Shown: positions 9,703 to 52,766 of the stretch, piece by piece | Layout of the letters: each line of letters starts with the position of its first letter | Position numbering within the stretch: the first letter of the stretch is position 1 | Assembly (NCBI GenBank): GCA_041497135.1 | Contig: JBGQFX010000011.1 | Span: 5,908-69,907, forward strand | Origin: Gemmatimonadota bacterium | GTDB taxonomy: Bacteria > Gemmatimonadota > Gemmatimonadetes > Gemmatimonadales > GWC2-71-9 | Reading direction: 5' to 3' | Length of the DNA stretch: 64,000 nt | Notes under the pieces: model-generated | Seen by the model: the letters and a program-made list of their open reading frames with translations, nothing else | The model's database searches: none | Told to the model about the DNA's origin: nothing | Translations under genes and position numbers: made by a program

Positions 9703-9769
9703 CGGTCTGTAACCGAGCTCCGGGTGTGGCGAAATCAGCCATGGTCGGTCAAACGCGAGGAGGTCACGT

Positions 9770-11689
9770 ATGCGCAGCATACCTCTCTTCTTGACGCTCG
9801 TGGTGGTGGCAGCGGGATGCCGAGACGTCACTGAGCCATCTCGATCGAACCCGCCCCGGGTTCACGCCAACCTCACGCTCTCATCGGACGTTCATGTAGT
9901 GGTTCACGACCTAGGCACGCTCGGCGGGGACTTCAGCGCAGCGACGGCGGTCAACGATCTTGGGCAAGTCGTTGGAACCAGCACGACGGTAACCGGCGAG
10001 GAACACGTGTTCATTTGGACCAGTGAGACCGGGATGTCCGATCTTGGGATCCTTGGCACACCGAGGTTCGCCCAAGTCAACGCCATCAATAACGCTGGGG
10101 ATCTGGTCGGCTGGATGTGGATGACCGTCGACCCAGGATCAGCGTCCCACGGCTTTCGCTGGAATCCCACTACCGGGCTCTTGGACCTTGGAGCATTGGA
10201 TCCTCAGAATGTCGACGGCAGTTCGGCTGAAGACGTCAACGCACAGGGTACGATTGCAGGGTGGTCGAGCGGACTGCCAGTGATTTGGTCCCCCACTGGC
10301 GTGCCCACTGTCCTCGGCGAGCTGCAGGCTGGTATGGGGGGTGGTGCCGAGGCGATCAACGGAGTCGGCCACGTCGCGGGTACGGCAACAATTATCTCCG
10401 CTGTCGGTCTGGCGGAAGACCGGGCTTTCTTGTGGACTACCGGCGGTGGCATGCAGAACCTCGGAACCTTAGACAATGGCCAGTTCTCATACAGTGACGC
10501 GAAGGACCTCAACGACCTGGATCAAGTCGTCGGGGAAAGCGACTCCCGCGGCTTCATTTGGTCACCGCAGACGGGAATGACGGACTTTCAAACCCTCACC
10601 GGTACCGATCTCGTCCCTCTCGCCATCAACAACGACGGCTTGGTCGTGGGTAATGACTTCCGCGGCCGAACGTCCGACGGAATCCATGTCAGGCGGGCCT
10701 TCCTGTGGACGCAGGAGAGCGGGCTGATTGGCATTGATCCGATCGGCTTCGGCCTCGTGGGTGGAGAAGGGGCACCATTCGCAGAGGCGGCGGACATCAA
10801 TGACATGGGGATGATTGTCGGACTGAGCACGACAGAGACCGGGAGCTTCCATGCAACGGTTTGGACGCTAGAAGCCTCCACCGACAACCGCGCGCCGGTG
10901 GCGGTTTCAGGGGGGCCGTTCCAGGGCTTCGAAGGTTCACCCGTCAGCTTTGACGCCAGTGGGTCTACGGATCCCGACGGAGATGCGCTGAGCTACGCCT
11001 GGGACTTCGGCGATGGCTCAAGCGCCACGGAGGTCTCACCAACCCATGGCTACGCGGACAACGGTGTGTTTCAAGTGACGCTGACGGTCACAGATGGAAC
11101 AGGTCTTTCCAGCGCTGTTGTGACTTCAGCGACGATCGCGAATGTGGCCCCATCGGTCGATCCGTTCGCCGGCGCCACCATTCTCCAGGGCGAGTCATAC
11201 ACTGGTGCGGGCGCGTTCACGGACCCGGGTGCCGACATCTGGACCGCCTTGGTCGACTTCGGCGACGGTTCAGGGTTGCAGCCGCTCACGCTCGTGGGGA
11301 ATGCCTTCACGCTGAGCCATGGGTATGGAACGCCGGGCACCTACCTAGTCAGGGTGACGATCAGCGATGATGACGGCGGTTCGGGTATCGGGCAGGTGTC
11401 GGTGGTAGTGCAGAGTCCACAGGAAGCGACCGGCGTGCTGTTGACGTCATTGGGCGACTTGGTCGCCGTCGGAGTGCTTTCTTCAGGCAACGCCAACGCG
11501 CTTGGTGCGAAACTGCGCGCCGCTCTCATCCAGCTCGCTGCCGCCAACCCGGCGGCGGCTGCCAATCAACTCAGGGCGTTCATCAATCAAGTGAACGCGC
11601 TCGTATCTGCCGGGAGGCTTCCGCTCGAGCAAGGCCGGGCGCTGGTCAACACCGTGCTGCGCGTCACTCGGGCGATCCAGCTGTTCTGA
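9770..11689 (+). CDS. Lipoprotein: HAF repeats + two PKD domains + C-terminal helical tail
   Basis: GAGGAGG lies 6 nt upstream of the ATG. Lipobox VVAAGC. HAF units: DLGTLGGDFSAATAVNDLGQVVG..HVFIW. PKD motifs: YAWDFGDGSSATEVSPTHGYADNGVFQVTLTVTDGTG and LVDFGDGS..HGYGTPGTYLVRVTISDDDGG. The tail (..SSGNANALGAKLRAALIQL..AANQLRAFINQVNALVSAGRL) resembles the tail of the 6031 gene. Confidence 0.85.
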   Translation: MRSIPLFLTLVVVAAGCRDVTEPSRSNPPRVHANLTLSSDVHVVVHDLGTLGGDFSAATAVNDLGQVVGTSTTVTGEEHVFIWTSETGMSDLGILGTPRFAQVNAINNAGDLVGWMWMTVDPGSASHGFRWNPTTGLLDLGALDPQNVDGSSAEDVNAQGTIAGWSSGLPVIWSPTGVPTVLGELQAGMGGGAEAINGVGHVAGTATIISAVGLAEDRAFLWTTGGGMQNLGTLDNGQFSYSDAKDLNDLDQVVGESDSRGFIWSPQTGMTDFQTLTGTDLVPLAINNDGLVVGNDFRGRTSDGIHVRRAFLWTQESGLIGIDPIGFGLVGGEGAPFAEAADINDMGMIVGLSTTETGSFHATVWTLEASTDNRAPVAVSGGPFQGFEGSPVSFDASGSTDPDGDALSYAWDFGDGSSATEVSPTHGYADNGVFQVTLTVTDGTGLSSAVVTSATIANVAPSVDPFAGATILQGESYTGAGAFTDPGADIWTALVDFGDGSGLQPLTLVGNAFTLSHGYGTPGTYLVRVTISDDDGGSGIGQVSVVVQSPQEATGVLLTSLGDLVAVGVLSSGNANALGAKLRAALIQLAAANPAAAANQLRAFINQVNALVSAGRLPLEQGRALVNTVLRVTRAIQLF

Positions 11690-19576: not shown

Positions 19577-19594
19577 CGTGGGGAGAATCTAGGT

Positions 19595-20335
19595 TTACAG
19601 GCTCGACACGCCAAGCTGTAGCACGTCATCCACGGCGACGGTTTCGTGCGTGAAATACGGCTCGCCGTACGCGGCGCGGATCAGCGAGCCGTAGTGGGCC
19701 GACTGCACCCGGATCAGCTCGTAGAGGTCCTGGCCGGTGGGGAAGATCTCCCCTGCCGCCTTGGCGCCGTCGAACTGGGAGGCGTAGCACCGGATCGCCG
19801 CCATCTTGGCCTCGAAGCTGTCGGAGATGTCCACCACGAACGACGGCTTCACCGGCTCTTCGCGGTACGCGAGTGCGAACAGCAGCTTGAACGGCCGGTG
19901 CGGCTCGACACCGGGGGACGGCGCGTACTTCGCGAGGCCGGCCAGATAGCAGGCGTCGCGCCCCAGCTCGGAGGCGACGCGATGGTCGGGGTGCCGGCCG
20001 ACGGGGAAGGGCAGGATCACGACGCGCGGGCGCAGCTCGCGCACCAGGCGCACGATCCGCTCGCGCGACGGCTCGTCGTTGGCGAGATGGGCGTCCGGCA
20101 GGCCGGCATTCAGCCGCACCGCGACTCCCAGGGTGCGGGCGGCGCGCTCCGCCTCGGCAGCACGCAGCTCGGCGGAGCCGCGCGTGCCGGACTCGCCCTG
20201 CGTCAGATCGAGGATCCCGACGCGATGCCCCGCGCGCGCCGCCTTGGCGAGCGTGCCGCCGCACGTGAGCTCGACGTCGTCGCGGTGGGCGGCAATGGCG
20301 AGAAGATCGACCGCGTCGTGTCGCAGTTCCATCAT
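19595..20335 (-). CDS. bshB1: PIG-L/LmbE-family deacetylase, BshB1-like (bacillithiol biosynthesis)
   Basis: VDLLAIAAHRDDVELTCGGTLAKAARAGHRVGILDLTQGESGTRGSAELRAAEAERAARTLG matches the BshB1/LmbE N-terminal AHPDDxE pattern. The start ATGATG overlaps the upstream permease stop. The rest of the track ORF (to 21247) is an out-of-frame shadow. Confidence 0.7.
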   Translation of the reverse strand: MMELRHDAVDLLAIAAHRDDVELTCGGTLAKAARAGHRVGILDLTQGESGTRGSAELRAAEAERAARTLGVAVRLNAGLPDAHLANDEPSRERIVRLVRELRPRVVILPFPVGRHPDHRVASELGRDACYLAGLAKYAPSPGVEPHRPFKLLFALAYREEPVKPSFVVDISDSFEAKMAAIRCYASQFDGAKAAGEIFPTGQDLYELIRVQSAHYGSLIRAAYGEPYFTHETVAVDDVLQLGVSSL

Positions 20336-21573
20336 TCGTAGCGCAGCGCTTCGATCGGATCGAGGCGCGCCGCGCGCGTCGCCGGCATCACGCCGAATAT
20401 CAGTCCGATGACGACCGAGACGAGGCAGGCGACCACCGCGCTCCAGATCGGCACGCCCGAACCGGTCCGCAGGAACGCCTTCAGCACCTCGCCCATGCCG
20501 AGGCCGACGAGCACGCCGATCAGCCCGCCCGCCAGCGTGAGTGTCGACGCCTCCACCAGGAACTGCCACAGGATCTCGCGCCGGGTGGCCCCCAGCGCCT
20601 TGCGCACGCCGATCTCCCGCGTTCGGTCGGTGACCGACACCATCATGATCGCCATCACCCCGATGCCGCCCACCATCAGGGCCACCGACGACAGCGCCAG
20701 CATCACGAGGAAGAACACGCCCGTGAGCTGGTTGAAGATGTCGAGGATCTGATCCTGCGTGATCATGTCGAAGCTGCTCGGGTCGGCGGGCCGCAGGCCG
20801 CGCATGCGTCGCAGCTGCACCGTGACGGCGTCCATCGCCTGGCTCACCGTCACCGCGTCGCGCGGCTTCACCACGATCCACAAGGCGTTCGTCTCGTCGT
20901 AGCGGAAGGAGCGGCGCGCCGTCTCGAACGGCAGGATCGCTCCGATCTCCTGCGAGGGCGCCTGAAAGATGTTCTGCGGATTCTGGTACAGGCCGATCAC
21001 CTTCAGCGACTTTCCGGCGACGCGCACGAACCGCCCGAGCGGATCGATGCGGCCGAACAGCTTCTCGGCTGGTTTTTCCTCCAGCACGATGACGGCCGCT
21101 CCCGAATTCTCTTCGGCCGTCGTGAAGAACCGGCCGCGCAACAGCTGCCCGCCCTGGATCTCCATGTAGTGCGCGTCGGCCCCGAACTCGGTCATGATCT
21201 GGGTGCGGGCGCCCTCGAACTCCATGCGCTGAAACAGCTGCACCCACATGCCGGAGTAACGGATCTCGGGCAGCGTGGCGATCGCCTGCGCTTCCTCGGG
21301 TTTCACGACCGGCCGGATGCGGACCTCCCGCGGCAGGGCGTCGGGGTTGAGCGGAGTCTGAGAGAAGATGCGCACCACGTAGAACGTGGTCGGTCCCGCG
21401 ACCTCGATCGTGGTGATGATCTGATCGCGGATGCCCTGGACGATGGACGCCATCGCCATCACGGTGGCGACGCCGATCACGACGCCCAGCATGGTGAGCC
21501 CCGAACGCAGCTTGTTGGCGCGCAGCTGGTCGAGCGCGATGCCGAACCCTTCGGAGAGGGAGTGGAGCTTCAC
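20332..21573 (-). CDS. ABC transporter permease, MacB/FtsX type, subtype A (copy 3)
   Basis: 413 aa. N-terminal TM GIALDQLRANKLRSGLTMLGVVIGVATVMAM, a large periplasmic domain and a C-terminal FtsX 3-TM module with TREIGVRKALGATRREI. It ends ..RAARLDPIEALRYE. The GTG start overlaps the upstream stop (GTGA). Confidence 0.9.
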   Translation of the reverse strand: MKLHSLSEGFGIALDQLRANKLRSGLTMLGVVIGVATVMAMASIVQGIRDQIITTIEVAGPTTFYVVRIFSQTPLNPDALPREVRIRPVVKPEEAQAIATLPEIRYSGMWVQLFQRMEFEGARTQIMTEFGADAHYMEIQGGQLLRGRFFTTAEENSGAAVIVLEEKPAEKLFGRIDPLGRFVRVAGKSLKVIGLYQNPQNIFQAPSQEIGAILPFETARRSFRYDETNALWIVVKPRDAVTVSQAMDAVTVQLRRMRGLRPADPSSFDMITQDQILDIFNQLTGVFFLVMLALSSVALMVGGIGVMAIMMVSVTDRTREIGVRKALGATRREILWQFLVEASTLTLAGGLIGVLVGLGMGEVLKAFLRTGSGVPIWSAVVACLVSVVIGLIFGVMPATRAARLDPIEALRYE

Positions 21574-22817
21574 TCCGCCCTCAGCGCGACCACCGGGTCC
21601 AGCCGTGCTGCCCGGGCCGCCGGATACACCCCGAACAGGATCCCGACGCCGGCGCCGAGCGAGATGGCCACCAGCACCGACCAGAGCGTGACCCGTGCGG
21701 GCAGCGGGGTGGCGGCGTTGATCAGGGCCGCGAGACCGGCGCCGGCGCCGAGACCGAGCAGGCCGCCCACCAGCGAGAGCGTCACCGCCTCCGCCATGAA
21801 CTGGCGCAGGATGTCGCGACGGCGAGCGCCCAGCGACTTGCGCACGCCGATCTCACGGGTGCGCTCGTTTACGCTCATCAGCATGATGTTCATGATCACG
21901 ATGCCGCCGACCACGATCCCGATCGCCACCACCGCGGGGATCACCGTGAACAGGATGCGCGTCAGGCTCTTCCAGAACGACACCAGCGCGTCGGCCGTGT
22001 CCACCGTGAAGTCGTTGGGCGCGTTCGGTCGCAGCCGGTGGGCGATCCGCATCGCCTCTTCGGCCCGCTGCATGCCGCCCGCCACCGAGAGGGCGTCGCG
22101 CATCTTCACCGAGATCACCGTGGTCTGACGCCGGCCGTACATCGTCTCGAACGTCGTGAGCGGGAGCATCACGAACCCGTCCCACGAGTTGCCGAGCACG
22201 GTGCCTTTCTTGGCGATCACGCCCTTCACCGTGAGCTGCTCGCCCCGCACGCGGATCCGCTGTCCCACGGCGAGCGCCACCGTGCCGTCGAACAGCTTGT
22301 CGGCGACGTCGTAGCCCAGCATCGCGACCAGGCGCCGCTCCCGCACGTCGGTGTCGGTGAGCGGCTCGCCGGCCGCGAACTGGTAGTCCTGCACGATCTG
22401 AAACGGGGCCGTCACCCCGAACACAAACGCGTCGCCCACGGTGCGGTTGCGCCACTCCACGTCGGCCTGGGGCGTGGGCCACCCCGACTGCAGCGAGATC
22501 GCCTTCGCATCCGGCAAGGCCCGCTGCACGTACGGCACGTCTTCGGGCGCGATGATCGGGCGGCGCTGGATGGTGCGCCATTCTTCGTCGTCGATCAGGC
22601 CGATGGCGATCGGGGTACGCCGCACCTGGAACGCGTTCACGCCGACGATCGCCCCGCCGATGCGGTCGCGCACGTACGCGTTCATGCCCTGGATCACGGC
22701 GACGACCGCGACCAGGAACGCCACCGACACGATGATCCCCACCAGCGTGAAAAACGAGCGCAGCTTGTGGCTCCACGCGGCCCGGAGGGCCTGCAGGATG
22801 GCTTCGGTGACTTGCAT
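21570..22817 (-). CDS. ABC transporter permease, MacB/FtsX type, subtype B (copy 3)
   Basis: 415 aa. N-terminus AILQALRAAWSHKLRSFFTLVGIIVSVAFLVAVVAV. FtsX motif TREIGVRKSLGARRRDI. It ends ..RAARLDPVVALRAE. Confidence 0.9.
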   Translation of the reverse strand: MQVTEAILQALRAAWSHKLRSFFTLVGIIVSVAFLVAVVAVIQGMNAYVRDRIGGAIVGVNAFQVRRTPIAIGLIDDEEWRTIQRRPIIAPEDVPYVQRALPDAKAISLQSGWPTPQADVEWRNRTVGDAFVFGVTAPFQIVQDYQFAAGEPLTDTDVRERRLVAMLGYDVADKLFDGTVALAVGQRIRVRGEQLTVKGVIAKKGTVLGNSWDGFVMLPLTTFETMYGRRQTTVISVKMRDALSVAGGMQRAEEAMRIAHRLRPNAPNDFTVDTADALVSFWKSLTRILFTVIPAVVAIGIVVGGIVIMNIMLMSVNERTREIGVRKSLGARRRDILRQFMAEAVTLSLVGGLLGLGAGAGLAALINAATPLPARVTLWSVLVAISLGAGVGILFGVYPAARAARLDPVVALRAE

Positions 22818-22840
22818 GGAACGGGAAAACTAATCGGGGT

Positions 22841-22944
22841 GTGCGCGGTACGCGGTGCGCGGTTTTCTTCCGGTCAGGACTTGAGATCCGGTGACGCAGG
22901 CACGGCCAGGGACGGGAGAATACCGCGCACCGCGCACTGCGCAC
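22841..22944. repeat. Imperfect 23-bp inverted repeat (21/23) with a 58-nt spacer, in the only sizeable gap of the permease array
   Basis: GTGCGCGGTACGCGGTGCGCGGT (22841-22863) against ACCGCGCACCGCGCACTGCGCAC (22922-22944). The reverse complement of the right arm differs from the left arm at 2 positions. It lies within the 128-nt gap 22818-22945. Confidence 0.8.
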
Positions 22945-22945
22945 C

Positions 22946-24181
22946 TTACTCGTATCGCAAGGCCTCTACCGGATCGAGGCGCGCCGCCCGGCTGGCGGGA
23001 TACAGCCCGAACCCCACGCCCGTGAACGCGGACGCGGCGAGGGCGGCGACCACCGACCACAGGGGGACGTGCGCGGGGATCGGGGTGACGCGGGACAGCA
23101 GGAACGCGATGCCGCCGCCGGCCAGCATGCCGGCGGCGCCGCCGACCAGAGTCAGCGTGGACGCTTCGACCAGGAACTGCCACAGGATGGCCCGCCGCGT
23201 GGCGCCGAGCGCCTTGCGCACCCCGATCTCGCGCGTGCGCTCGGTGACCGAGATCATCATGATCGCCACCACCCCCACGCCGCCCACCATCAGCCCGATC
23301 GACGACAACACCATCATCACCAGGAAGAACATCCCGGTGATCTGATTCCACGACTCGAGCAGCTTGTCCTGGGTGACGATCGAAAAGGTGTTCTCCTGGT
23401 CGGGCTTGAGCTCTCGGAGCGAGCGCAGCGTCGCGGTCACCTCATCCATCGCCTGCTGCTGTGTGAAGCCGGGCGCAGGCGATACGGCGAGCCGCATCCA
23501 TCCCTTGAAGTAGGGCACGTACTTCACGAACGCCCCGTGGGGGATACCGGCGAACGGCGGTGAGGCGCCGCTGAACAGGTTGGGCGGCGGCGTGTACACG
23601 CCGATCACCGTGAAGGGCACCCCCGCCACCTTCACCACCTGTCCCAGTGGATCACGGCCGCGGAACAACTGGGCCTCGAGCTTCTTGTTGATCACGACCA
23701 CCGGGCTGTTGGCGAGATCCTCCATCCGGGTGAAGCTGCGCCCGGGAGACACGTCGCCGCCGTTCACCTCCACCCACTGCGACGAGAGCCCGGCCACGTT
23801 CACCGACCCGAGCCGCAGGTCGCCGAATTCGATTTCGGCCTCGCTCTCCTCGCGCCGCGTCACGTAGCGCACGCTCGGCAGCTGGGCGATGCGGTCCGCC
23901 TCGATCTCGCGGATCGGCGGGTTGCGGCGCCACGGCGAATTCTCGTCGGAGCCGTCGTCGATGGTCACGCCGGCCTGAAACACGCGCCACACCAGAAACG
24001 TGCGCGGCGCGATCTGTTCGAACGTGGTGGCGACGCTCTGATTGATCCCGCTGATCATGGCGGCGATCACCATCACGACCATCACGCCGATCGCCACCCC
24101 CAGGATGGTGAGCGCGGCGCGCGCCTTGTTGGCGCGCAGCGAGTCGAGCGCGATGCCGACGCCCTCCAGGAGCGGCGTCAC
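22946..24181 (-). CDS. ABC transporter permease, MacB/FtsX type, subtype A (copy 2)
   Basis: The GTG start at 24181 overlaps the upstream stop (GTGA) and gives VTPLLEGVGIALDSLRANKARAALTILGVAIGV, collinear with the start of paralog 25432 (MTPMLEGAGIALASLRAHKARAALTILGVAIGV). It ends ..RAARLDPVEALRYE. The 38-aa Arg-rich extension in the track ORF is rejected. Confidence 0.9.
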   Translation of the reverse strand: MTPLLEGVGIALDSLRANKARAALTILGVAIGVMVVMVIAAMISGINQSVATTFEQIAPRTFLVWRVFQAGVTIDDGSDENSPWRRNPPIREIEADRIAQLPSVRYVTRREESEAEIEFGDLRLGSVNVAGLSSQWVEVNGGDVSPGRSFTRMEDLANSPVVVINKKLEAQLFRGRDPLGQVVKVAGVPFTVIGVYTPPPNLFSGASPPFAGIPHGAFVKYVPYFKGWMRLAVSPAPGFTQQQAMDEVTATLRSLRELKPDQENTFSIVTQDKLLESWNQITGMFFLVMMVLSSIGLMVGGVGVVAIMMISVTERTREIGVRKALGATRRAILWQFLVEASTLTLVGGAAGMLAGGGIAFLLSRVTPIPAHVPLWSVVAALAASAFTGVGFGLYPASRAARLDPVEALRYE

Positions 24182-25422
24182 GTTTCCTGCCGCAGCGCGA
24201 CGATCGGATCGAGTCGCGCGGCGCGGCTGGCCGGGTAGACGCCCGCGAGGATCCCGACTCCCGCGCCCAGCACGACGCCGAGCCCGATGGACCACGGGGC
24301 CACGCTGGTGGGCAGGGAGGTGGTGGCCGCGACCAGTCCCGCGAGTCCGAGCCCGCTCGCCACTCCGGCCGCCGCCCCCACCGTGGACAGCGTCGTGGCT
24401 TCGACCAGGAACTGGCGCAGGATGTCGCGCCGCCGGGCGCCCAGCGACTTCCGGATCCCGATCTCGCGCGTCCGCTCCGCTACCGCCATCAGCATGATGT
24501 TCATGATCACGATGCCGCCCACCACGAGCGAGATGGCCACGAGCCCGGGCAGCGCCAGGAACAGCACGCGGCTGATCTTGCTCCAGAAGTCCAGCACTTC
24601 GTCGGCCGTCTCGAGTGCGAAGTCATCCTCGGCGCGGGGCCGGAGATGATGGCGGCTGCGCATGATCCCCTCGGCCTGCGCCAACGCCTCGCGCATTTCC
24701 GCCTGGGACGCGGCTTTGACCACGAGCGCGTCCACGACGCGCGGCGGATTGACCCAGCGTTTCAGGTCGGCGGTCGCCGGAGCGACCGCGAATTTGTCGA
24801 GCGACATGCCGAACAGGTTGCCCTGCTTTTCGACCACGCCGATCACGCGGTAGGGGAGGTCGAAGATCTTCAGCTCGCGGCCGATCGGGTCCTGGCCCTC
24901 GAACAGCTTCGCCGCGAGCTCGTGCCCCAGCACCACCACGGGCGTGCCGACCTGGACCTCCTGCAGCGTGAATGGGCGACCGAGCTCGATGACGAACGAG
25001 CGGATCGCGAAGTACTGCTCGGTCGCCGCGGTCACCTGCACGAGCTTGGCCTGCTTCCCGCCGGCCGAGAGGGTGGCGCTCGTGCTCGACTCCCACGCCG
25101 AAATCGCCGGCACCGTGAGGCCGCGCGCCACGGCCACGCCATCCTCGTAGGAGATGCGGGGTCGCCGCCGCCAGACGCGCCACGTCGAGTCGGTCACGTT
25201 GCCGAGCTGCACGTCGGGGAATTGTCGCAACCGAAACGTGTTCACACCGAGGATCGTGCCCGCGAACTTGTCGGTCATGTAGCGGTTCATTCCCTGGACG
25301 ACCGACACCACGGCGATGAGGAACATCACGCCGATGAAGACGCCGATGATGGAAAAGGCGCTCTTCAGCTTCTGCGTGCGGAGCGTCTGCAGGGCGAGGC
25401 GGATCGCCTCGAAGAACGGCAT
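24178..25422 (-). CDS. ABC transporter permease, MacB/FtsX type, subtype B (copy 2)
   Basis: 414 aa. MPFFEAIRLALQTLRTQKLKSAFSIIGVFIGVMFLIAVVSV, then TREIGIRKSLGARRRDI. It ends ..RAARLDPIVALRQET. Confidence 0.9.
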   Translation of the reverse strand: MPFFEAIRLALQTLRTQKLKSAFSIIGVFIGVMFLIAVVSVVQGMNRYMTDKFAGTILGVNTFRLRQFPDVQLGNVTDSTWRVWRRRPRISYEDGVAVARGLTVPAISAWESSTSATLSAGGKQAKLVQVTAATEQYFAIRSFVIELGRPFTLQEVQVGTPVVVLGHELAAKLFEGQDPIGRELKIFDLPYRVIGVVEKQGNLFGMSLDKFAVAPATADLKRWVNPPRVVDALVVKAASQAEMREALAQAEGIMRSRHHLRPRAEDDFALETADEVLDFWSKISRVLFLALPGLVAISLVVGGIVIMNIMLMAVAERTREIGIRKSLGARRRDILRQFLVEATTLSTVGAAAGVASGLGLAGLVAATTSLPTSVAPWSIGLGVVLGAGVGILAGVYPASRAARLDPIVALRQET

Positions 25423-25431
25423 GACGGCAAC

Positions 25432-26667
<1,236 letters not shown>

Positions 26668-26670
26668 GGG

Positions 26671-27909
26671 CTACTCCTGGCGCAGGGCCACGATCGGGTC
26701 GAGTCGGGCGGCACGGCTGGCCGGGTACACGCCGGCCAGCACGCCGACGCCACCGCCCACGACGACACCCAACAGAATCGACACGGGCGACACCGTCGCC
26801 GGAAGCGGCGTGGCGGCGTTGAGCAGCACTGAGAGGAGTATCCCCGCGCAGATTCCGAAAACGGCTCCGACCGTCGCGATCGTCACCGATTCCGCGAGGA
26901 ACTGACGCAGGATGTCGCGGCGCCGGGCGCCCAGGGACTTCCGGATCCCGATTTCGCGCGTCCGCTCCGCCACGGCCATCAACATGATGTTCATGATCAC
27001 AATGCCGCCCACCACGAGGGCCACGCCCACCAGACCGGGTCCGACTGCGTACAGGATGCGGCTGAGCTTCTTCCAGAAGTCGAGCACCCCCTCCGAGGTC
27101 ATCATGGCGAAATTGTCATCCTGGCGCGGCCGCAAATGGCGGCGACTTCGCATGATCGCCTCGGCCTCGTCCATCCCCTGGCGCATCTCGGCCGGGGAGT
27201 TCGCTTTCACGATCAGGGCGTCCACCACGCCCGGCGGGTTCACCTCGCGCTGGATCGGCGACAGGGCAGGGGCGACAACGAACTTGTCGAGCGAGATGCC
27301 GAGCAGGTTACCCTGGCGCTCCACCACGCCGATCACGCGGTACGGGATGCCGTGAATCCGCACCGTGCGATCGAGCGGGTTGGCGCTGCCGAACAGCTTG
27401 TCAGCGAGGTCGTACCCCAGGACGACCACCCCGGCGCCGGCCTTCGATTCCTGCGCGCTGAACGGGCGGCCGCTCTCGATCTTGAGATTCATGATGTCGA
27501 AGTAGCGCTCGGTGGCGCCTTCGAGCGTGATGTCCTTGGCGACCTTGCCGTTGAACTCTACCGGGCCCCGGTCCTCGGAATACCACGCGGTGATCACCGG
27601 TATGGTCAGTCCCGCCGCCACCGCTTCGGCATCCGCGAACTTGATGCGCGGGCGCCGGCGCCAGGCGCGCCACGTGGAGTCGTCCACATCGAAGTTCACG
27701 TTCGGGGCGCGCCGCAGGTGGAACGTGTTCACCCCCACCAGGGTGCCGGCGAACTTCTCCGTCATGTACGTGTTCATGCCGTTCACGATCGACCAGGCGC
27801 CGATCAGGAAGGAGACCCCGATGAACACGCCGATCAGGGCGAAACCGCTCTTGAGCTTCTGGGCCCGGAGCTGCAGGAAGGCGAGTCGGATCGCCTCGAA
27901 CGGCCGCAC
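26671..27909 (-). CDS. ABC transporter permease, MacB/FtsX type, subtype B (copy 1)
   Basis: 412 aa. The GTG start is 1 nt after the ATPase stop. MRPFEAIRLAFLQLRAQKLKSGFALIGVFIGVSFLIGAWSI. The motif DSTWRAWRRRPRI is shared with 24178 (DSTWRVWRRRPRI). It ends ..RAARLDPIVALRQE. Confidence 0.9.
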   Translation of the reverse strand: MRPFEAIRLAFLQLRAQKLKSGFALIGVFIGVSFLIGAWSIVNGMNTYMTEKFAGTLVGVNTFHLRRAPNVNFDVDDSTWRAWRRRPRIKFADAEAVAAGLTIPVITAWYSEDRGPVEFNGKVAKDITLEGATERYFDIMNLKIESGRPFSAQESKAGAGVVVLGYDLADKLFGSANPLDRTVRIHGIPYRVIGVVERQGNLLGISLDKFVVAPALSPIQREVNPPGVVDALIVKANSPAEMRQGMDEAEAIMRSRRHLRPRQDDNFAMMTSEGVLDFWKKLSRILYAVGPGLVGVALVVGGIVIMNIMLMAVAERTREIGIRKSLGARRRDILRQFLAESVTIATVGAVFGICAGILLSVLLNAATPLPATVSPVSILLGVVVGGGVGVLAGVYPASRAARLDPIVALRQE

Positions 27910-27910
27910 G

Positions 27911-28642
27911 CTAGGCGGCTTTCCGCTGGTCCGTCGCCACCAGGCCGTCGCGCAGCGTCACCACCCGTGCGGCGTGCGCCGCGATCTCCGCCTCGTGCGT
28001 GACCATGACGACGGTCTGCCCCTGACCGTGCAGCTCACCGAAGACACCCATGATCTCCTGGCTCGTGGTCGAGTCGAGGTTTCCCGTCGGCTCATCGGCC
28101 AGCAGGATGCTGGGGTCGTTGACGAGGGCGCGCGCGATCGCCACGCGCTGGCGCTGGCCGCCGGACAGCTCGTTGGGCTTGTGGTCCATGCGATCGCCCA
28201 GCCCCACCCGCGTCAACGTGTGGGCGGCGCGCTCGCGCCGGCCGCGGGCGCCAATGCCGGCGTAGATCAACGGCAGCTCGACGTTGTGCAGTGCCGACGC
28301 GCGCGGCAGCAGGTTGAACGTCTGAAACACGAAGCCGATTTCCTTGTTGCGGATTCGGGCCAGCTCGTCGTCGGACAGATCCGAGACCTTCTGCGTGTTG
28401 AGCCAGTACTCTCCGGCCGTCGGTGTGTCGAGACACCCGATCAGGTTCATCAGCGTGGATTTCCCAGAGCCCGAGGGACCCATCACGGCCACGTACTCGT
28501 TGCGCCGGATCTGCAGATCGACGCCGCGCAACGCGCGCACGACTTCCGATCCCATGTCGTAGTCGCGGGTCAGCTTGTGGGTCAGGATGATGATGTCGGG
28601 CAGCGGCGTGTCGCCGGTGCGGAACTCCTGCGCGCGGCTCAT
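27911..28642 (-). CDS. ABC transporter ATP-binding protein (MacB/LolD-type NBD)
   Basis: Walker [14 protein letters not shown]-loop [10 protein letters not shown], signature [15 protein letters not shown], Walker [13 protein letters not shown] and H-loop VMVTHE. The ATG overlaps the adaptor stop (ATGA). Confidence 0.95.
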
Positions 28643-29904
28643 GGGCGCGCGCGCCGCGCGGAATCGGCCGGCTGCTTGGCGGCGCGCACCGGGGTGGCGT
28701 CTTTCAGGTCGCGAATCGCCTGGTAAGGCCCGGCCACGATCTGCTCGCCCTCCCGCAGGCCGTCGAGCACTTCGAAATACTCGTCGCCCGCGATCCCCAC
28801 CCGGACCGGCCGGAACGTGGCCTTGCCGTTCAGCACCACGAACACGCCTTCCGTTTCCTTCTTCTTGCCGACGTGCGACGTGTCGCGCCGGCTCTCGGGC
28901 GTCACCGGCGTGTTTTCCCGGACCGTGAGGGCGATGATCGGAATCGACAGCGACTGCTTGCGCGTGTCGGTCACGATCCGCGCGGTGGCGGAGAGATCGG
29001 GGCGCACATCGCTGGGAGGATTCTCGAGCGTGACTTCCACCTCGTAATCCACCGCACGGTCGTTCGTGCCGGTCACCGCCGTCTGACTCAGGAGCGCGCT
29101 GTTCGCGATCTTGGTGACACGGCCCACGAACGCGGTGTCGGGGAACGCGTCGATCGACACTTCGACCGAATCACCCAGATGGATGCGGACCACGTCGGTC
29201 TCATCCACGTTCACCTTGGTCTGGATCACCGAGAGATCGGACACCGTGAGCAGGAGCCCGACATCCCTCGAGAATGTACCGGGCACGGCGACCTCGCCTT
29301 CTTCCACGGCGAGCCGGGTCACCCGGCCGGTCATGGGAGCGACGATGTGCGTCTTGGCCAGCTGGTCGCGCGACTCCTGGACGCCGGCGCGCGCCTGGTC
29401 CACCTGGTGCTCCGCCGAGTTGGCGACCGCCTCGGCCACATTGAACGAGGTCTGCGCCTGCTCCATCTGCTCATCGGAGATCAGGTTCGGGTTTTGGCGC
29501 TTGAGCTGTTTGGCCCGCTCCAGCGCCCGCGCGGCCTGATCACGGCTGGCCCGCGCCTGCACCAGCGCCGCCTGCGCCGACGCGTACGACGCCTGGGCGC
29601 GTTCCAGTCCCGCTTCGTAGATCGTCGGATCGATCTGCAGCAGGAACTGGCCCTTTTGCACCAGATCGCCTTCGTGCACCCCGAGCCGCGTGATGCGCCC
29701 CGTGATGTCGGGGCTGACGTCGACCTTCGTCTTCGGCTGCACCTTGCCGCTCGCCGTCACCGCCGCAACCAGATCGCGCCGACCCACCTTCTCGAACCTG
29801 ACTTCGACGCCACGCTCGCGCTTGGCGGAGGCACTCATCACGATCAGGCCGCCGACGAGCACGACGCCGCCGACGCCGATCAGAACCTTGCTCACCCTGG
29901 ACAT
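28639..29904 (-). CDS. Efflux periplasmic adaptor (HlyD/MacA family)
   Basis: N-terminal TM anchor [16 protein letters not shown]. Lipoyl-like segment [30 protein letters not shown]. Long coiled-coil hairpin (..[32 protein letters not shown]..). Beta-barrel and MP-domain-like C-terminus. Confidence 0.9.
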
Positions 29905-29923
29905 GTCTCGGTTTCCTCTCCGG

Positions 29924-31411
29924 TTAACGCAAGCTGCGGCCGACCGACGCTTCCAGAGCCGCCACGGCCCGGTGGTAGTCGTAGATCGCCGCGATGTAGT
30001 CCGTCTCCGCCCGCAGCGCGGCCACCTGAGCGTCCAGCAGCTCGAAGAACGTGCCCGCGCCCACCTTGTAGCGGTCGGTGGCGAGCTGGACCTGCTCGCG
30101 CCCGAGGGCGCGGTTCGTATCCTGGATGCCGACCGCCTGATAGGCGGTCTGCAGCGTGTAGTACGCCTGGCTCACCTCGGTCTGCAACCCCAGGCCGCGC
30201 GCGCGCACGCTTTCCTCCAGGTTCTCGCGCTGCGCTTTGGCGAGGGAGACCTGCTGCGGCTGCGAGAAATTGGTCCACAAGGGCAGCGTGACCGAGAGGC
30301 GCGCCTGAAACGGCTGGCCGATGAAGGTGAACGGGAACACGTTGTTCTGGTCCCGTATCTGCTGCTCTCGCCCAGCGGTCCACACATACGGGCTGCAGTC
30401 GATTGGTGGGGTGAGGCCGTTGTTCGCGCGGATGATGTTGGTCTCCCGGCAGTCGATGTCCTGCGCGCCCGCCGAGAGCTGACTGCTGAGGATCACCGAG
30501 TTGAGATCGCCGCCGTGCGCGTACGCCTGGGTGAAACCCGACCACCCGGCCGAGAGCGACACCGTCGGGGCCCAGCTTGAGGCCGCCGCCCGGACCCCCC
30601 AGGCGGCAGAGCGCTCGCGCGCGCGCAGGGCCTCGAGCGCCGGGTTCTGCGCTTCCGCCATGGAGAGCACGTCCTCCAGCTTCCAGGTCGGCTCGGCCAT
30701 GGGGAACGTGTCGCTGAGTTGTACGGCGTCCACGCCGGTCGGGGCACTGACGCCCAGCTGCTCGAACAGACGCAGTTTCTCCACGCGCTGCGCCGTCCGG
30801 GCGCGCAGCAGGGAGACTTGCGCCTGCCCCAGTGCGACCTGCGCCTGGCGCACGTCGATCAGGGTCGCCTGGCCGACGGCGTAGCGCGCCTGGGCGAGCC
30901 GGAGAAACTCCTCGTCGCGCGTCACCAGCCGCTCGGCGACCCCGACGTTGTCACGGGCCTGCAAGACCGTCAGGTATTGCTGCGACACCGTGGCGTCGAG
31001 CGTGGCCCGGGCGCCATGGATATCGGCGTCCGCGGCCGTGAGCTCGGCTCTGCGCAGTCCCGGCTGCGACAACGTCGCGCCCGAGAGCGTCCAGTCGAGC
31101 CCGACCGAGTAACTCGAGCTCAGCGTGGCGTATGTCTGCGAGAAATTCGACGTGAGGAATCGCTGCGACCCCGTACCCGAGTACCCCAGGCTCCCCGACG
31201 CGGTGACCTGGGGGAGCAGCAAGCTCGCGAACGCGTTGCGCGTGCCCCACGCTGCCGGCGCGCGGTTGTTCAGCGCCTGGCGATAGACGGGGTTGTGGTC
31301 GTGCGCGATGCTCAACGCGTCTGCGAGCGACAAGGTCGCCGGAATCGGCTGCTGCGCGGCCGCGGTTCCGGCGATGCCCATCAGCCCGAACAAGAGTGTG
31401 AATTGTCTCAT
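29924..31411 (-). CDS. TolC-family outer-membrane efflux protein
   Basis: I chose the start at the Met at 31411 (MRQFTLLFGLMGIAGTAAAQQ signal). It has the two-repeat TolC architecture, with LSLADALSIAHDHNPVYRQA.. and a second half ..LEDVLSMAEAQNPALEAL... The C-terminus is ..YDYHRAVAALEASVGRSL. Confidence 0.9.
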   Translation of the reverse strand: MRQFTLLFGLMGIAGTAAAQQPIPATLSLADALSIAHDHNPVYRQALNNRAPAAWGTRNAFASLLLPQVTASGSLGYSGTGSQRFLTSNFSQTYATLSSSYSVGLDWTLSGATLSQPGLRRAELTAADADIHGARATLDATVSQQYLTVLQARDNVGVAERLVTRDEEFLRLAQARYAVGQATLIDVRQAQVALGQAQVSLLRARTAQRVEKLRLFEQLGVSAPTGVDAVQLSDTFPMAEPTWKLEDVLSMAEAQNPALEALRARERSAAWGVRAAASSWAPTVSLSAGWSGFTQAYAHGGDLNSVILSSQLSAGAQDIDCRETNIIRANNGLTPPIDCSPYVWTAGREQQIRDQNNVFPFTFIGQPFQARLSVTLPLWTNFSQPQQVSLAKAQRENLEESVRARGLGLQTEVSQAYYTLQTAYQAVGIQDTNRALGREQVQLATDRYKVGAGTFFELLDAQVAALRAETDYIAAIYDYHRAVAALEASVGRSLR

Positions 31412-31553
31412 GGGATCCTTTGCTGATGCCTGGGAAGCTATTCTGAAGCCGTGCCCCATACGCGTGCGGCCCAGGTCAGGTTTCGGGCTGCGACGTTCGC
31501 CCTGGCTGGGGGAAAAGCTAGCCGCTACAAGGACTTATGTGGAGTGGTGGGAA

Positions 31554-32225
31554 TCAGCCCGGCAACCGCTCGGCGCGCAGCGCACGAGCCGGCACTTCCA
31601 CCTTCATGAGACGCCCCTCCGGTGAGAGCCAGACGTGCACCGGGCCGTCGTCACCACCCGCGATGAGGACGTGACGCAGTGTGGCGGGATCGCGGTTCAA
31701 CGTCGTGACCCCGATCCCTAGATCGGTGACCGTCAGGGCAAGGCGCCGCGCCGTGCGAGGGTAGATCGCCGTGATGATTCTGGGCGTCGGCGACGCCAGC
31801 CAGCTCGCGACCAGGAACGGGGCGAACACGGAATCATCCACGATGACGGTGGGGTCTCCCCGAGCCAGCTCCCGCGCGCGCTCGAGCCCGGGCGCCACGT
31901 ACCGCAGCGTATACCGGCCCGGCCCAGGCTGGCCGGTGATGCGCTGCGAGGCTCCGTTGGCGGCGACCGCGTACTCGAGGGCCTCAGGCGCCGTGTCGGG
32001 TCCCAGGGCCAGCTTCGTTGCGAACGTGACCGGCGGCGTCGCGACCCAGCGGACGCGCGCGGCGAGCAGCCAGCCGCTCGTGCTGTCGGTGGCGTGGCGG
32101 CTCAGCAAGCGGAACGATTCGCGCGCCACTTCCTGCGTGTCCATCCGGACCACGAGCGTGCCTTCGTCCAGCGGGGTCCCCGCTCCCTGCGTGAGAACGA
32201 GCGCCGCGAGCAGCGCGGCGCTCAC
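31554..32225 (-). CDS. Hypothetical protein (possibly secreted)
   Basis: 223 aa with a hydrophobic N-terminus MSAALLAALVLTQGAG. The GTG start overlaps the creatininase stop (GTGA). The composition looks coding, but I recognise no family. Confidence 0.55.
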   Translation of the reverse strand: MSAALLAALVLTQGAGTPLDEGTLVVRMDTQEVARESFRLLSRHATDSTSGWLLAARVRWVATPPVTFATKLALGPDTAPEALEYAVAANGASQRITGQPGPGRYTLRYVAPGLERARELARGDPTVIVDDSVFAPFLVASWLASPTPRIITAIYPRTARRLALTVTDLGIGVTTLNRDPATLRHVLIAGGDDGPVHVWLSPEGRLMKVEVPARALRAERLPG

Positions 32226-38917: not shown

Positions 38918-41900
38918 TTGCCTGCGCTCATGAGATCCTCAGGCCGTCTCGGTCTGCGCGCGGCGCTGCTTTCCGCGACGCTCGTCACCTGTACCAGCGA
39001 TCATCCGACCGGCCCCGGCCGCTTCGGGCGAGGGGTTCTGGCGATCCGTCCGGTGCTGGCGTCGCCGGTGGATCTCGCGGCCTTCGGGCTCATTGTCGAC
39101 CGTCTGCGCGTGGTCGCCGTCCGTCCGGTGGCGGATACGGCGCTCGACACCACGGTCGTCTTCAGTCCCGATTCGGCGTCGTTGCACCTCTCGCTGTCCG
39201 TGTTGCTCCACGCAGCGGTGGAGACGTTCGTCATCCACCTGGAGCTGCGGGCGGGCTCCGTGGTCCTCTTTTCGGGCGTCGATACGGCGCAGGTCTCGAG
39301 TGGCCCGCCGGATACGTCGTCCGCCGCGACCATCCCGCTCAGCTACGTCGGGCCGGGTTCGGGACTCACGAAATTGAGTATCGGGCCGCGCGATTCGGTC
39401 CTCACGCTCCGCGACTCGCTGCGCTTCACGGCCGCCGCCGAATCACTCGGCGTCTCGATCGCTTCCTTCTATGTGCACTGGTCCACCAGCGACACCGTAA
39501 ACGCCCCGATCAACGGGGCCGGCCTGCTGCGCGCTCCCAATGCGCGCGGCGGTGTGGTCGTGCGGGCGGTGACCCCGAACGGCGTGAAGGATTCGACCCG
39601 GGTCACATTCGTACCGGTACCGGCGGCTGTCGCGGCGTTCGCGGGCTCAGGCCAGTCGGGTACGGTCGGCACCCGGCTTCCCGTGCCGCTGCGGGCCCGA
39701 GTGAAAGCGAGCGACTCACTCGGCGTGCAGGGCGTCCCGGTGCGGTTCCAGGCGCTGAGCGGCGGAAGCGTAAAGGACTCGGTGGTACTGACCGACAGCC
39801 TCGGCTTCGCCGCAGACACGGCGACTCTCGACACCCTCGCCGGCGTGAAGAGTTACCGGGCCTCGGTTGGCGCGTTGACGGCGACCTTCAGCGCGACTGC
39901 CACGGCGGGCGCCATCACGGCGGCTCAGTCCGTGGTCACCGTGTCCAGCGCCACCGTCGCTTCGGGCACCGGCGTCACGCTGACGCTGCGCGGCAAGGAC
40001 CAGTTCGGCAACAACCTCACGACCGGCGGTGCGACCGTCCTGTTCAGTGCCACCGGTGGGACGAGCTCCGGTAACATCGCGCCCAGCCCGGCGACGGATA
40101 ACAACGACGGTACCTACACCGCAACCTTCACCGGACTCCTCGTCGGATCGGCCACGACGATCGGCGCGACGATCAACGGCACCGCCGTCTCGACGGCGTT
40201 GCCCACGATCACCGTCACCGCGGGTGCGATCTCGCCGCTCACGTCTCTCGTCACGACCTCGAGCGGCACCGTGTCGTCCGGCGCAACCGCGACGTTGACC
40301 CTCCAGGCCAAGGACTCGGCCGGCAATTCGCTGGCCACGGGCGGGGCGACGGTCGTCTTCTCCCGTGCCGGCGGCACCAGCACCGGCAGCATCGTGCCCA
40401 GCCCGGCGACCGACAACAGCAACGGCACCTACACCGCGACCTTCACCGCCGATTCCGCCGGCACGGCGACCACGATCCGGGCCACGATCGGCGGTGTGCT
40501 GGCCACTTCTACGACGCCGATCACGGTCGTGCCGGGCAACACCACCGCCGCCCAGTCGGTGATCACGGTATTGCCCGATACGATTCAGGCGGGCGGCGCG
40601 TCGACGCTGAAGCTCCAGGCGAAGGATGGGGCGGGCAACAACATCACGACCGGCGGGCTGACCGTCGTGTTCAGCCATTCCGGCGGGACGAGCACCGGCA
40701 CCATCGCGCCGAGCCCCGCGACGGACAACAACAACGGTACGTACACGGCAACGTTTACCGGTCAGACGGCCGGGACGGCGACCACGATCCACGCCACGAT
40801 CAACGCCGTGCAGGTGACGTCCACGCTGCCGACCATCACCGTCACCTCCAGCGGCATCTCGGCGGTGACGTCCGTGGTCACCAGCACCGATTCACTATTG
40901 CCGGTGAGCGGCGTGGCCACGCTGACGCTTCAGGCGAAGGATGGCTCGGGCAACGTGATCACCAGCGGCGGCGCGGCCGTCGTGTTTACGCAGTCGGGTG
41001 GCACCAGCACTGGTAATTTCAGCATCACAACCGATCACAACGATGGCACGTACACCGCGACGTTCACCGCGGTGAATGCCGGCACGCCCACCCAGATCGG
41101 CGCGACGATCAACGGCACGGCCGTGACGTCAGTGCCGCTGCCCACGATCCGCGTCTTCTCCTCGGTCCATACGGCCGATATCCTGGCCGATTCGACTTGG
41201 ACTGCGGCGGCGAGCCCGCACATCGTCAGCACCTACCTCCGTATTCGCAACGGTGCGACGCTCACCATTCAACCGGGCGCCACGGTGAAGTTCGATGCCG
41301 GGGCCGGGCTGCAGGTCGGCGACACGGCATCGAACCAGGCGGGCCGGCTGAACATGGACGGCGCCGCGCTCGGCATCATCCTCACGGCCAATACCGCGAC
41401 GCCCGTACCGGGCTTCTGGCGCGGCATCGAGGTACAGCGTGCCCTTGGTGGTCCGGCCTGGCAGAATACGACGATCGAATACGGCGGCGGCACACGGTCG
41501 CCGTTCGGCGGCGTCCTCGCCGAGGCCTGCGTCCTGATCGTGAATCGCTCCGGGGCCGCGCTCGACTTGGACAGCCTGCACATTCGCAAGTGCGTGCACG
41601 CCGCGATCCATCATTTCGGCGGCACGGCGCATGTGCACCGCACCACGATCGACTCGGTCACGGGCTCGGGCATCCACGTCGACTTTGACGCGCAGCTCGA
41701 GCTCGATTCGACCACGATCCGCGGATCGGGGCAGGAGGGGCTGTTCTTCGCCAGCCTGACCTCGCGCCTGCTGCCCTCGAGTGGCAACCGGGTCTTGGGC
41801 AGCGCGGGAACGGGCATTCATCTGAACGCATTCCAATTGCCCGGACTGTTGAAGCAAGATTCGATCGTGGGAAACGGAGTCAACTTCGGCACCAACTTCA

Positions 41901-45721: not shown

Positions 45722-45741
45722 CCGGTTAGATTCCGGTTTCC

Positions 45742-49293: not shown

Positions 49294-49673
49294 CGGTGTC
49301 CTCCCTGGAGGTCACAACGCTCGATAGTCCGCGTGGAATCTAGCCTTTCTGTGATTGGCTCGACGTGTTCGGCGCCTTGAGGACGAGAACCGCTTCATTC
49401 CCCAGTCCTTCTTTCCTGTCGCGGTCAACACCACCTACTCCATCGCGACGTCCGGGGTCGGCCCACAGGTGACGCTCGGACGGGGCCCGATGCGGCTGTA
49501 TGGGTTTGGGACCTTCGGTGCGTCCTGCATCTCGGCGCGCTCCTGACCCACTCATCACTCCTTGATTCCCCGCCGGCACATTTCTGAAACTGAAGCCCTC
49601 TCTCCACCGTTTCCTGACACAGTGTCGTGTTCGCAGTTCCGTCATGCCGTTTGTCCGCTAACTTTCCGGCCCT

Positions 49674-52600: not shown

Positions 52601-52766
52601 GACGTCCCGCCGGCCGCTGGGATACGCGATCGTGGGTGGCATCTTCTTCTCCACCGTGCTCACATTGTTCGTCGTGCCGGTGGCCTACACGCTGCTCGAC
52701 CGGTTGCGTGCACGGGAGGCGCACGACCTCCAACAGACAGCCCTCGAGCCGGCGGAGGCAAAGTGA
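49674..52766 (+). CDS. RND efflux transporter permease (AcrB/HAE1 family)
   Basis: 1,030 aa with 12-TM RND architecture. N-terminus SIRRPVLASMLSAALVLFGVIGY..LPDIDPP. GIVVDDAIIVLENAYRH and the second-half TM bundle ..LLIGLVTKNSILLVEYANQ.. are present. Confidence 0.95.
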   Translation: MRLSETSIRRPVLASMLSAALVLFGVIGYTRLSVRELPDIDPPIISVSTVLPGANAQVVETAVTDVLEEELSTIQGLRTLSSSSSEQSSNITLEFTLDRPVDVAAQDVRDKVSRVRGRLPVDVLEPVIAKQQADAQPFFWLALSSSNYDLMQLSDVADRLVKARLQSLPGVGSAGVYGERRYAMRVWVQPEQLSARSLTVQDVEGAITSRNVEIPAGRIESTRREFSVRSLGELKTPQEFGELVVASQGTQVVKLKDVANVELGPEDDRSIFRFNGIPAVAIGVVRQSKANLIQVAQRIREALPGIQQTLPPGVKLLIAFDGSVFVTHSIKDARLTLFIAAILVVLIIFVFLRNLRATIIPGLAIPTSIITVFAILYFLGFSINNFTLLALTIAIGIVVDDAIIVLENAYRHQEELNEKPVQAAVNGTNEIGFAVIATTIALVAVFTPLAFLQGTTGRLFNEFGVAMAGAVIISGFVALTLTPMLCAKILRVSREHGPVFKVFERGFNAIAERYATLLRSALRHRVLVVVGTGASVLLAVVLYKNLKQELLPDDDRGFFLVVSSGPEGASLDYMDGYVRQVEQIIGKTPDVQGYFTIIGGFAGGVNRSFVGVILKDWSERHTTVQQMVGGLFPQLFGIAGIRAFPYSPGALGFSQPIQYVVQNPDFARLAQAMDTLVPRVRAIKGLTNVDTDLRVNKPELRVTFDRDRAEDLGVPVRDVAAALQTFLGGRRVSTFTRNDKLYYVMVQLDPAHRATPSDMSGIYLRGNNGQLVQLSALAKVEEGVGPRQINHFNRVPSFTLSASLIPPFAQGEALDSLDRLAKQVLPPGSTTALAGDSREFRESGGALYFAFGIALLVVFMVLASQFESLVHPFTVLLAVPLAVTGALATLLVAALMHRPGGTINLYSEIGMILLIGLVTKNSILLVEYANQLKARGLDTVAAVIEAGRIRLRPILMTSVATIMGAIPVMIGLGAGSTSRRPLGYAIVGGIFFSTVLTLFVVPVAYTLLDRLRAREAHDLQQTALEPAEAK

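Follow-up and report, generated by a model that had tools for sequence, protein, structure and literature searches.

Organization of the operon

The stretch of DNA analysed in this study, referred to below as the window, comprises 64 kb of contig JBGQFX010000011.1 from a soil bacterium of the Gemmatimonadota (order Gemmatimonadales); its G+C content is around 68% and its closest relatives are metagenome-assembled genomes (MAGs) of the Gemmatimonadales. [quoted passage not shown] This layout, including the strict alternation, had been put forward in a preliminary description of the sequence, and was confirmed by the domain calls and by the matrix of pairwise identities. Independent gene calls were available from the NCBI assembly GCA_041478375.1, which contains the exact B1 protein, and they agree with the present calls. 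The OMF start was placed at M17 (position 31411), since relatives align from residue 17 and the independent call is also of 495 aa, while the longest open reading frame (ORF) reaches 31459. The longest ORF of A2 (to 24295) is an over-extension; its true start is a GTG that shares 4 nt with the end of B2.

Most of the genes are closely packed. The OMF and MFP genes are separated by 19 nt, the MFP and NBD genes overlap by 4 nt, and gaps of 1 and 3 nt follow between NBD and B1 and between B1 and A1; further downstream the spacing is 9 nt (A1-B2), a 4-nt overlap (B2-A2), 128 nt (A2-B3) and another 4-nt overlap (B3-A3). Within the permease array it therefore holds that all junctions are 4-nt overlaps or gaps of no more than 9 nt save the one of 128 nt, as had been stated. 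At the DNA level the array is periodic, with six units of 1.24 kb that share 60-78% identity.

The NBD contains canonical Walker A, LSGGQ, Walker B-E and H-loop motifs and is the only one encoded in the window; its best NCBIfam alignment is to the NBD part of MacB (264.7 bits), followed by LolD. The MFP passes the TIGR01730 cut-off (152.8 bits against 94.9) and stays below that of the MacA model NF008606 (128.9 bits against 342). All six permeases match MacB_PCD (E 1e-31 to 1e-36) and FtsX (E 1e-18 to 1e-24) over their full length and above the gathering scores, and all have the four transmembrane (TM) segments and, between TM1 and TM2, the large core domain in the periplasm that define the MacB/FtsX (type VII ABC) superfamily. 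Full-length alignments to MacB structures were obtained at E 1e-39 to 1e-47, the best being 5lil (residues 271-663, E 1e-47), followed by Spr0695 5xu1, 5gko and 5nik. Scores against the MacB equivalog of NCBIfam were below its cut-off of 966 bits for the permeases (154-170 bits) and for the NBD (265 bits), which is a separate polypeptide here and not fused as in the E. coli equivalog.

Other families were considered and rejected. The lolCE/TIGR02212 models gave 37-60 bits against a cut-off of 362, the LolC structure in the PDB aligns with the C-terminal TM part only (E 7e-7), and the operon also encodes an adaptor and a duct, all of which excludes a LolCDE identity. The ADOP model (TIGR03434) gave 106-141 bits against 622 and matched by one half only, the window proteins being single units, and the DevC and FtsX family models scored far under their cut-offs. 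A MacA-type adaptor and a TolC-type OMF adjoin the NBD, which is the gene content expected of a MacAB-TolC pump; the gene content of a VarACDEF-type system (two MacB-like permease genes, one ATPase, one MFP and one outer membrane protein in one cluster) is found as well, but with three permease pairs. Given the alignment to MacB structures, the rejection of the other families and the adjacent adaptor and duct, the operon is identified from its sequence as a MacAB-TolC-type (type VII ABC) tripartite efflux operon of Gemmatimonadales in which the ATPase is a separate polypeptide.

Table 1. Genes and sequence elements in the 64-kb window (aa, amino acids; E, E-value)
Feature	Position	Strand	Description	Evidence or remark
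OMF	29924..31411	-	TolC-like, 495 aa from M17, signal peptide	Pfam OEP E 1.9e-51; TIGR01844 114 bits (below cut-off)
MFP	28639..29904	-	MacA/YknX-type periplasmic adaptor, 421 aa, N-terminal TM anchor	HlyD_D23, HlyD_3; Pfam Beta-barrel_YknX, YknX_C
NBD	27911..28642	-	ABC ATPase, 243 aa	ABC_tran E 2e-34
Permease B1	26671..27909	-	412 aa, subtype B, orthogroup 1a	TM2 motif GGIVI
Permease A1	25432..26667	-	411 aa, subtype A, orthogroup 1a	TM2 motif GGIGV
Permease B2	24178..25422	-	414 aa, subtype B, orthogroup 2	
Permease A2	22946..24181	-	411 aa, subtype A, orthogroup 2	GTG start at 24181
Permease B3	21570..22817	-	415 aa, subtype B, orthogroup 3 (deepest branch)	
Permease A3	20332..21573	-	413 aa, subtype A, orthogroup 3	4-nt overlap between its start and the B3 stop
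Stem-loop	22841..22944	-	very stable; in the 128-nt A2-B3 gap	minimum free energy -64 kcal/mol, z -5.1
AT-rich motif TTAGTTTTCC	22824..22833	-	6 nt upstream of the B3 ATG	kept before B3 in relatives, hairpin-less ones included
Motif TAGCTTTTC	31512..31520	-	candidate operon promoter element in the gap preceding the OMF gene	inferred
PIG-L/LmbE-family deacetylase gene	19595-20335	-	246 aa in the independent call	overlaps A3 stop by 4 nt
223-aa protein gene	31554-32225	-	directly upstream of OMF; short hydrophobic N-terminus	
RND-type efflux operon	49674-55149	+	AcrB-family transporter (1030 aa), OMF (431 aa), HlyD-type adaptor (364 aa)	
Repeat protein gene	38918-45721	+	2267 aa	invasin/Big_1/filamin Ig-like repeats and beta-helix
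TPR-CHAT protein gene	57-2678	+	873 aa	

Two permease subtypes and duplication of the pair

Identity within a subtype is 64% both for B1/B2 and for A1/A2, and falls to 42-44% for B3 against B1/B2 and to 42-46% for A3 against A1/A2, compared with 33-36% for any A against any B. The TM regions are 44-76% identical across paralogues, and the periplasmic domains 52-58% between pairs 1 and 2 and 20-33% otherwise between paralogous pairs. The N- and C-terminal signatures by which the subtypes had first been told apart are present as described, although B3 and A3 fit them loosely, and the motifs DSTWR.WRRRPRI (B1 and B2) and DGSDE.SPWRRNPP (A1 and A2) were also found.

Scanning one genome per species yielded 15 loci of the same architecture in the Gemmatimonadales (L numbers are used for individual loci below), which share the syntenic slot creatininase-orf223-OMF-MFP-NBD-(BA)n-PIG-L-iscS-mnmA. 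The pair number, for which a survey of related genomes had been suggested, is two in L008, L009, L014 and L015, three in the window, L006, L007, L011 and L013, and four in L003 and L010, always with alternating subtypes. The NBD gene of L008 (8364-8744) lacks residues 1-46 and 113-178, so that the signature motif is gone, with the permease pairs intact; these deletions reflect either an artefact in the assembly of the MAG or a genuine loss of the ATPase at this locus.

A neighbour-joining tree of 75 permeases, in which bootstrap values were taken as unrooted split frequencies, resolved an A clade (99) and a B clade (96). Four orthogroups, 1a, 1b, 2 and 3, are mirrored in the two clades with a support of 85-100 each; in both, 1a and 1b are sisters (100 and 90) and group 3 lies outside the rest (100 and 100). 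The window proteins take the positions that had been predicted for them, with B1 and B2 and likewise A1 and A2 as sisters and pair 3 basal. The window holds orthogroups 1a, 2 and 3 and L013 holds 1b, 2 and 3, while L003 and L010 contain all four. The mirrored orthogroups of around 15 relatives demonstrate gain and loss of the B-A cassette as a two-gene unit, and the earlier proposal that this cassette was tandemly duplicated as a unit is supported by the trees. All six window genes show dN/dS values of 0.09-0.19 against their orthologues and are thus under purifying selection, and no recent gene-conversion tracts were detected among them; the six copies are therefore both maintained and distinct. 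Across genomes the orthogroups are conserved at 80-95%.

Occurrence of the pair in other lineages

A metagenome scan added 80 further loci, annotated by blastp, and adjacencies were counted over 108 loci in total. B is followed by A in 95 cases and A by B in 35 (between pairs), with nine same-type adjacencies; the median gap is 4 nt inside a pair and 53 nt between pairs. When 117 sequences were placed in a tree, A and B formed large clades whose subclades mirror each other and reach down to around 35% identity to the window proteins; single-permease systems fall outside both clades. Independent duplications of the pair were observed in other lineages (L032, L041 and L046/L075). The same-type adjacencies are mostly from distant systems outside the A and B clades, and the main exception to equal A and B content is L046, with the order B-A-A-B-A. 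As judged from these trees and gene orders, the pair, in its B-then-A order, is of ancient origin and occurs widely in metagenomes from soil.

A HMMER search of the whole library with B1 returned 124,823 cluster representatives at E<=1e-3, and the B-type signature was present in about 67 of the best 150. An 824-aa fused protein (P0006) was considered as a possible B-A fusion and rejected, as it consists of two canonical GI-type units. The plasmid collection contained only relatives of less than 35% identity, and the single region inspected there is a single-permease system.

Around 20 of the loci carry a lone B-A pair. In six of these with full 10-kb flanks (L056, L063, L069, L071, L081 and L108), no ABC ATPase, adaptor or OMF was found within 10 kb on either side, and Pfam scans of the neighbours in L063, L071 and L081 recovered unrelated genes only. 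L081, a relative of pair 3, adjoins a two-component system, and L071 adjoins LptD and thiol-redox genes. Trans-encoded ATPases are therefore implied for lone pairs of this kind.

A reciprocal signature in TM2

A dipeptide in TM2, located about 11 residues before the coupling helix, separates the two subfamilies in a comparison of 49 A and 48 B sequences. Canonical MacB and the single-permease systems have GG(I/V)-G-I-MNIM at this place (dipeptide GI). All 49 A proteins have GV, whereas valine comes first in all 48 B proteins, followed by I in 45, V in two and L in one. Relative to the canonical form, the conserved glycine is thus replaced by valine in B, and the neighbouring isoleucine by the smaller valine in A. 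TM1 and TM2 of both MacB protomers make up a central four-helix bundle which zips up upon ATP binding (PMC5985334), and given this location the reciprocal change is a possible knob-into-hole pairing device.

The ratio of 95 B-to-A to nine same-type adjacencies, the 4-nt median gap, the mirrored clades in deeply diverged lineages and the reciprocal TM2 signature together strongly suggest that B and A form obligate heterodimers. By analogy, this is also supported by precedents for heterodimeric split MacB pumps, namely VarACDEF of Vibrio cholerae and TP0962-0965 of Treponema pallidum.

Putative expression signals ahead of pair 3

Hairpins as stable as that in the A2-B3 gap of the window occupy the same junction in L003, L006, L008 and L009 (z -4.7 to -5.7), with weaker ones in L014 and L015 (z -2.3); at the junction before B3 no hairpin is present in L010, L011 or L013. 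The structure is conserved while the primary sequences are unrelated, the arms being made up of short repeats such as GTGCGCG, GGGAAAC and GGGACGC. A function as terminator/attenuator or as mRNA-stability element is possible. The motif upstream of B3 has the consensus TTAG(T/C)TTTCC and is kept where the gap measures just 9-15 nt (L010 and L011); on this conservation, the motif (TTAGTTTTCC; TAGTTTTCC) is a candidate promoter (-7-like) or translation-initiation signal. Since both the hairpin and the conserved motif precede B3, pair 3 may be expressed partly independently, which should be regarded as a lead.

The pattern TA(G/A)nTT(T/C)C occurs approximately 6-16 nt upstream of operon-first start codons at 22824-22833 (-), 49659-49667 (+), ~45726-45733 (+), ~19589-19597 (-) and 31512-31520 (-); its enrichment in the window is weak (nine matches against 4.7 expected). 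It could represent a promoter yielding near-leaderless mRNAs, or a translation-initiation signal. A sigma-70 consensus scan of the operon region returned no promoters, and terminator-like matches there were at chance level and on the wrong strand. The pattern also resembles the -7 promoter element TAnnTTTG of Bacteroidetes. The four-pair locus L003 has an insertion between pairs 1a and 2 (9676-10998), namely a gene whose product is a multi-TM membrane protein of around 400 aa, NRAMP-like by eye; a hairpin and TAGTTTGTAGCC motifs flank it.

A proposed common engine for three permease pairs

Two blocks, ERTREIG.RK.LGA..R.IL.QF and PA.RAARLDP..ALR.E, are invariant or nearly so in all six permeases. 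[quoted passage not shown] With a single NBD, near-invariant coupling helices and divergent periplasmic domains, it is reasonable to suppose that three heterodimers operate on one ATPase, one adaptor and one duct, and plausible that they compete for these shared components. Each B-A pair would join the NBD dimer through its major and minor coupling helices and dock beneath a MacA-like hexamer and a TolC-like trimer common to all pairs. Differences between the complexes would then lie chiefly in the periplasmic Porter and Sabre domains, the site of substrate uptake in MacB-type pumps; from this we infer substrate diversification among the pairs, by which the array may allow a broader set of compounds to be expelled from the periplasm. 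Pair 3, preceded by the hairpin and the conserved motif, may be expressed partly on its own. This mechanism as a whole, B-A heterodimers sharing one NBD, adaptor and duct, is held with moderate confidence.

Some considerations weigh against it. Other MacB-type ATPases elsewhere in the genome could serve some of the pairs, the NBD count covering the 64-kb window. The lone pairs with neither adaptor nor duct within 10 kb indicate that B-A dimers need not always act in a tripartite pump, and the hairpin before pair 3 may separate this pair transcriptionally from the shared components.

The evidence for a shared engine is also compatible with mixing across pairs, in which any B would combine with any A to give up to nine heterodimers in this genome, in addition to partners from orphan pairs elsewhere. 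The TM2 signature and coupling helices are alike in all three B and in all three A proteins, and the similarity of the TM regions across paralogues (44-76%) would permit this. However, the tight translational coupling of B to A within pairs suggests co-adaptation of neighbours, as do the mirrored partner trees of similar divergence; partners have also diverged jointly in their periplasmic domains, and free mixing is considered unlikely.

A comparably low probability is assigned to the proposal that the array is a co-location and not a common pump, the encoded adaptor and duct being used by some pairs only, with the others, especially the distal pair 3, working as type VII mechanotransmitters or extractors that need no adaptor and may depend on another ATPase. 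Lone B-A pairs without NBD, MFP and OMF are common, six of them in fully flanked loci, a relative of pair 3 (L081) is such a pair beside a two-component system, and in the window the hairpin and start motif stand ahead of pair 3. Yet in nearly all relatives pair 3 has kept its place immediately after the pump genes, the conservation of its coupling helices equals that seen in pairs 1 and 2, and in L010 and L011 the gap before it shrinks to 9-15 nt.

That the six permeases form independent homodimeric MacB-like pumps with common accessory proteins would accord with the homodimeric state of every structurally characterised MacB-type efflux permease (MacB, Spr0695 and YknZ). It appears very improbable in view of the strict 1:1 alternation and co-duplication over deep time, with almost no arrays of unequal A and B content, the placement of single-gene systems in a different clade with the canonical GI, and the invariant glycine-to-valine change in B with its reciprocal change in A. 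Least credible of all is mere redundancy, by dosage amplification or drifting copies lacking functional specialisation, for although close relatives carry two to four pairs and single pairs are thus dispensable in some lineages, the paralogous pairs are 42-64% identical (20-58% in their periplasmic domains), with conserved orthogroups, low dN/dS and no recent gene conversion.

A broader version of the shared-engine mechanism can be advanced tentatively from the sequence comparisons, and is somewhat doubtful as it stands. According to this, there would be a large and so far undescribed clade of obligate heterodimeric MacB-type permeases whose pairing is enforced by the reciprocal change in TM2 packing, one engine, made up of an ATPase dimer with one adaptor and duct, would serve exchangeable B-A heads, including ATPase-less pairs located elsewhere, and this would apply to Gemmatimonadales and probably to other soil phyla. 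Such a modular layout of one engine with many heads would be new for type VII ABC exporters and for tripartite pumps.

Relation to known transporters

VarACDEF of V. cholerae (VC1563, VC1565-VC1568) is a characterised tripartite ABC pump which confers macrolide resistance, and comprises the MacB-like 4-TM permeases VarD and VarE with large periplasmic domains, the separate ATPase VarF, the MFP VarA and the outer membrane protein VarC in one cluster (PMC5595328). Likened by gene content, Var and the window operon have the same set of components, with one permease pair in Var and three in the window (two to four in relatives). In T. pallidum, TP0962/TP0963-TP0964-TP0965 has been predicted, though only predicted, to consist of a heterodimeric TM component of the MacB kind, a pair of identical NBDs and one adaptor (PMC8407342). 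Both this operon and that of the window have multiplied one component, but T. pallidum has four OMFs (TP0966-0969) with one pair, whereas the window has one OMF with a multiplied pair.

E. coli MacAB-TolC shares with the window system the permease fold family, the MacA-like adaptor, the TolC-like duct and both coupling helices, and differs from it in that MacB is an NBD-fused, single-gene homodimer, while the window has a separate NBD and two permease subfamilies in three pairs. LolCDE provides the precedent for asymmetric TM domains on one ATPase, in the form of a heterodimer of the paralogous type VII permeases LolC and LolE on a LolD homodimer, but it lacks both adaptor and duct and functions together with LolA. 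The ADOP proteins are another large paralogous expansion of the MacB/FtsX type, with two units per protein and the ATPase not nearby, and thus parallel the lone B-A pairs; unlike the single units of the window, they are fused polypeptides of about 800 aa. The concept of one ATPase module for several membrane or specificity subunits is also found in the group II energy-coupling factor (ECF) transporters with their exchangeable S components and in the shared ATPases MsiK and MsmX. Those systems differ in having unrelated folds, in working in the import direction and in lacking an adaptor and a duct. To our knowledge there is no precedent for a shared energiser amongst type VII exporters.

The claim that no characterised tripartite pump has this arrangement was therefore overstated with respect to the single pair, a design already known from the characterised VarACDEF, from the heterodimeric MacB described in T. 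pallidum and from the LolCDE heterodimer; the multi-pair array does appear to be undescribed. Full-text searches of the literature, whose coverage was incomplete, turned up no account of two to four such pairs arrayed behind a single ATPase, adaptor and duct, nor of the A and B clades or the TM2 signature, so that either absence is weak evidence. The window array is a multi-copy form of a known pump type, not a novel machine, and only its multi-pair layout appears undescribed. Taken from its sequence, it is probably one efflux engine with three alternative heterodimeric membrane units.

Neighbouring genes

The PIG-L/LmbE-family gene is followed by IscS-like and MnmA genes, and because it overlaps the A3 stop, with these genes coming after it, the transcription unit may extend past the end given in the preliminary description. 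An ORF downstream of A3 (19626-20264, 212 aa, Arg-rich) was rejected as spurious, the real gene there being that of the PIG-L deacetylase in a different frame. The 223-aa protein gave no match in a Pfam search. It is kept upstream of the OMF in all relatives, down to 24% identity (L032), its gene has a 4-nt overlap with a creatininase gene, and a role as an accessory protein of the periplasm is conceivable.

A second, unrelated efflux system of the resistance-nodulation-division (RND) type lies on the plus strand of the window, where the gene order transporter-OMF-adaptor is unusual. The remaining genes recorded in Table 1 encode a long protein with Ig-like repeats and a TPR-CHAT protein.

Implications

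If the shared-engine mechanism is true, tripartite efflux would gain an organisational principle in which a wider substrate range comes from multiplying the periplasm-facing heterodimer alone and not entire pumps, with ATPase, adaptor and exit duct in common. It would raise the questions of how a symmetric NBD dimer and a hexameric adaptor choose among asymmetric membrane units, and of how ATPase-less permease pairs are energised. Genome annotation at present calls all such proteins 'ABC transporter permease', and the TM2 dipeptide, V(I/V/L) or GV as opposed to GI, would offer a simple sequence diagnostic for heterodimer-type and homodimer-type MacB permeases. Such arrays may also add to the intrinsic resistome of abundant soil phyla.

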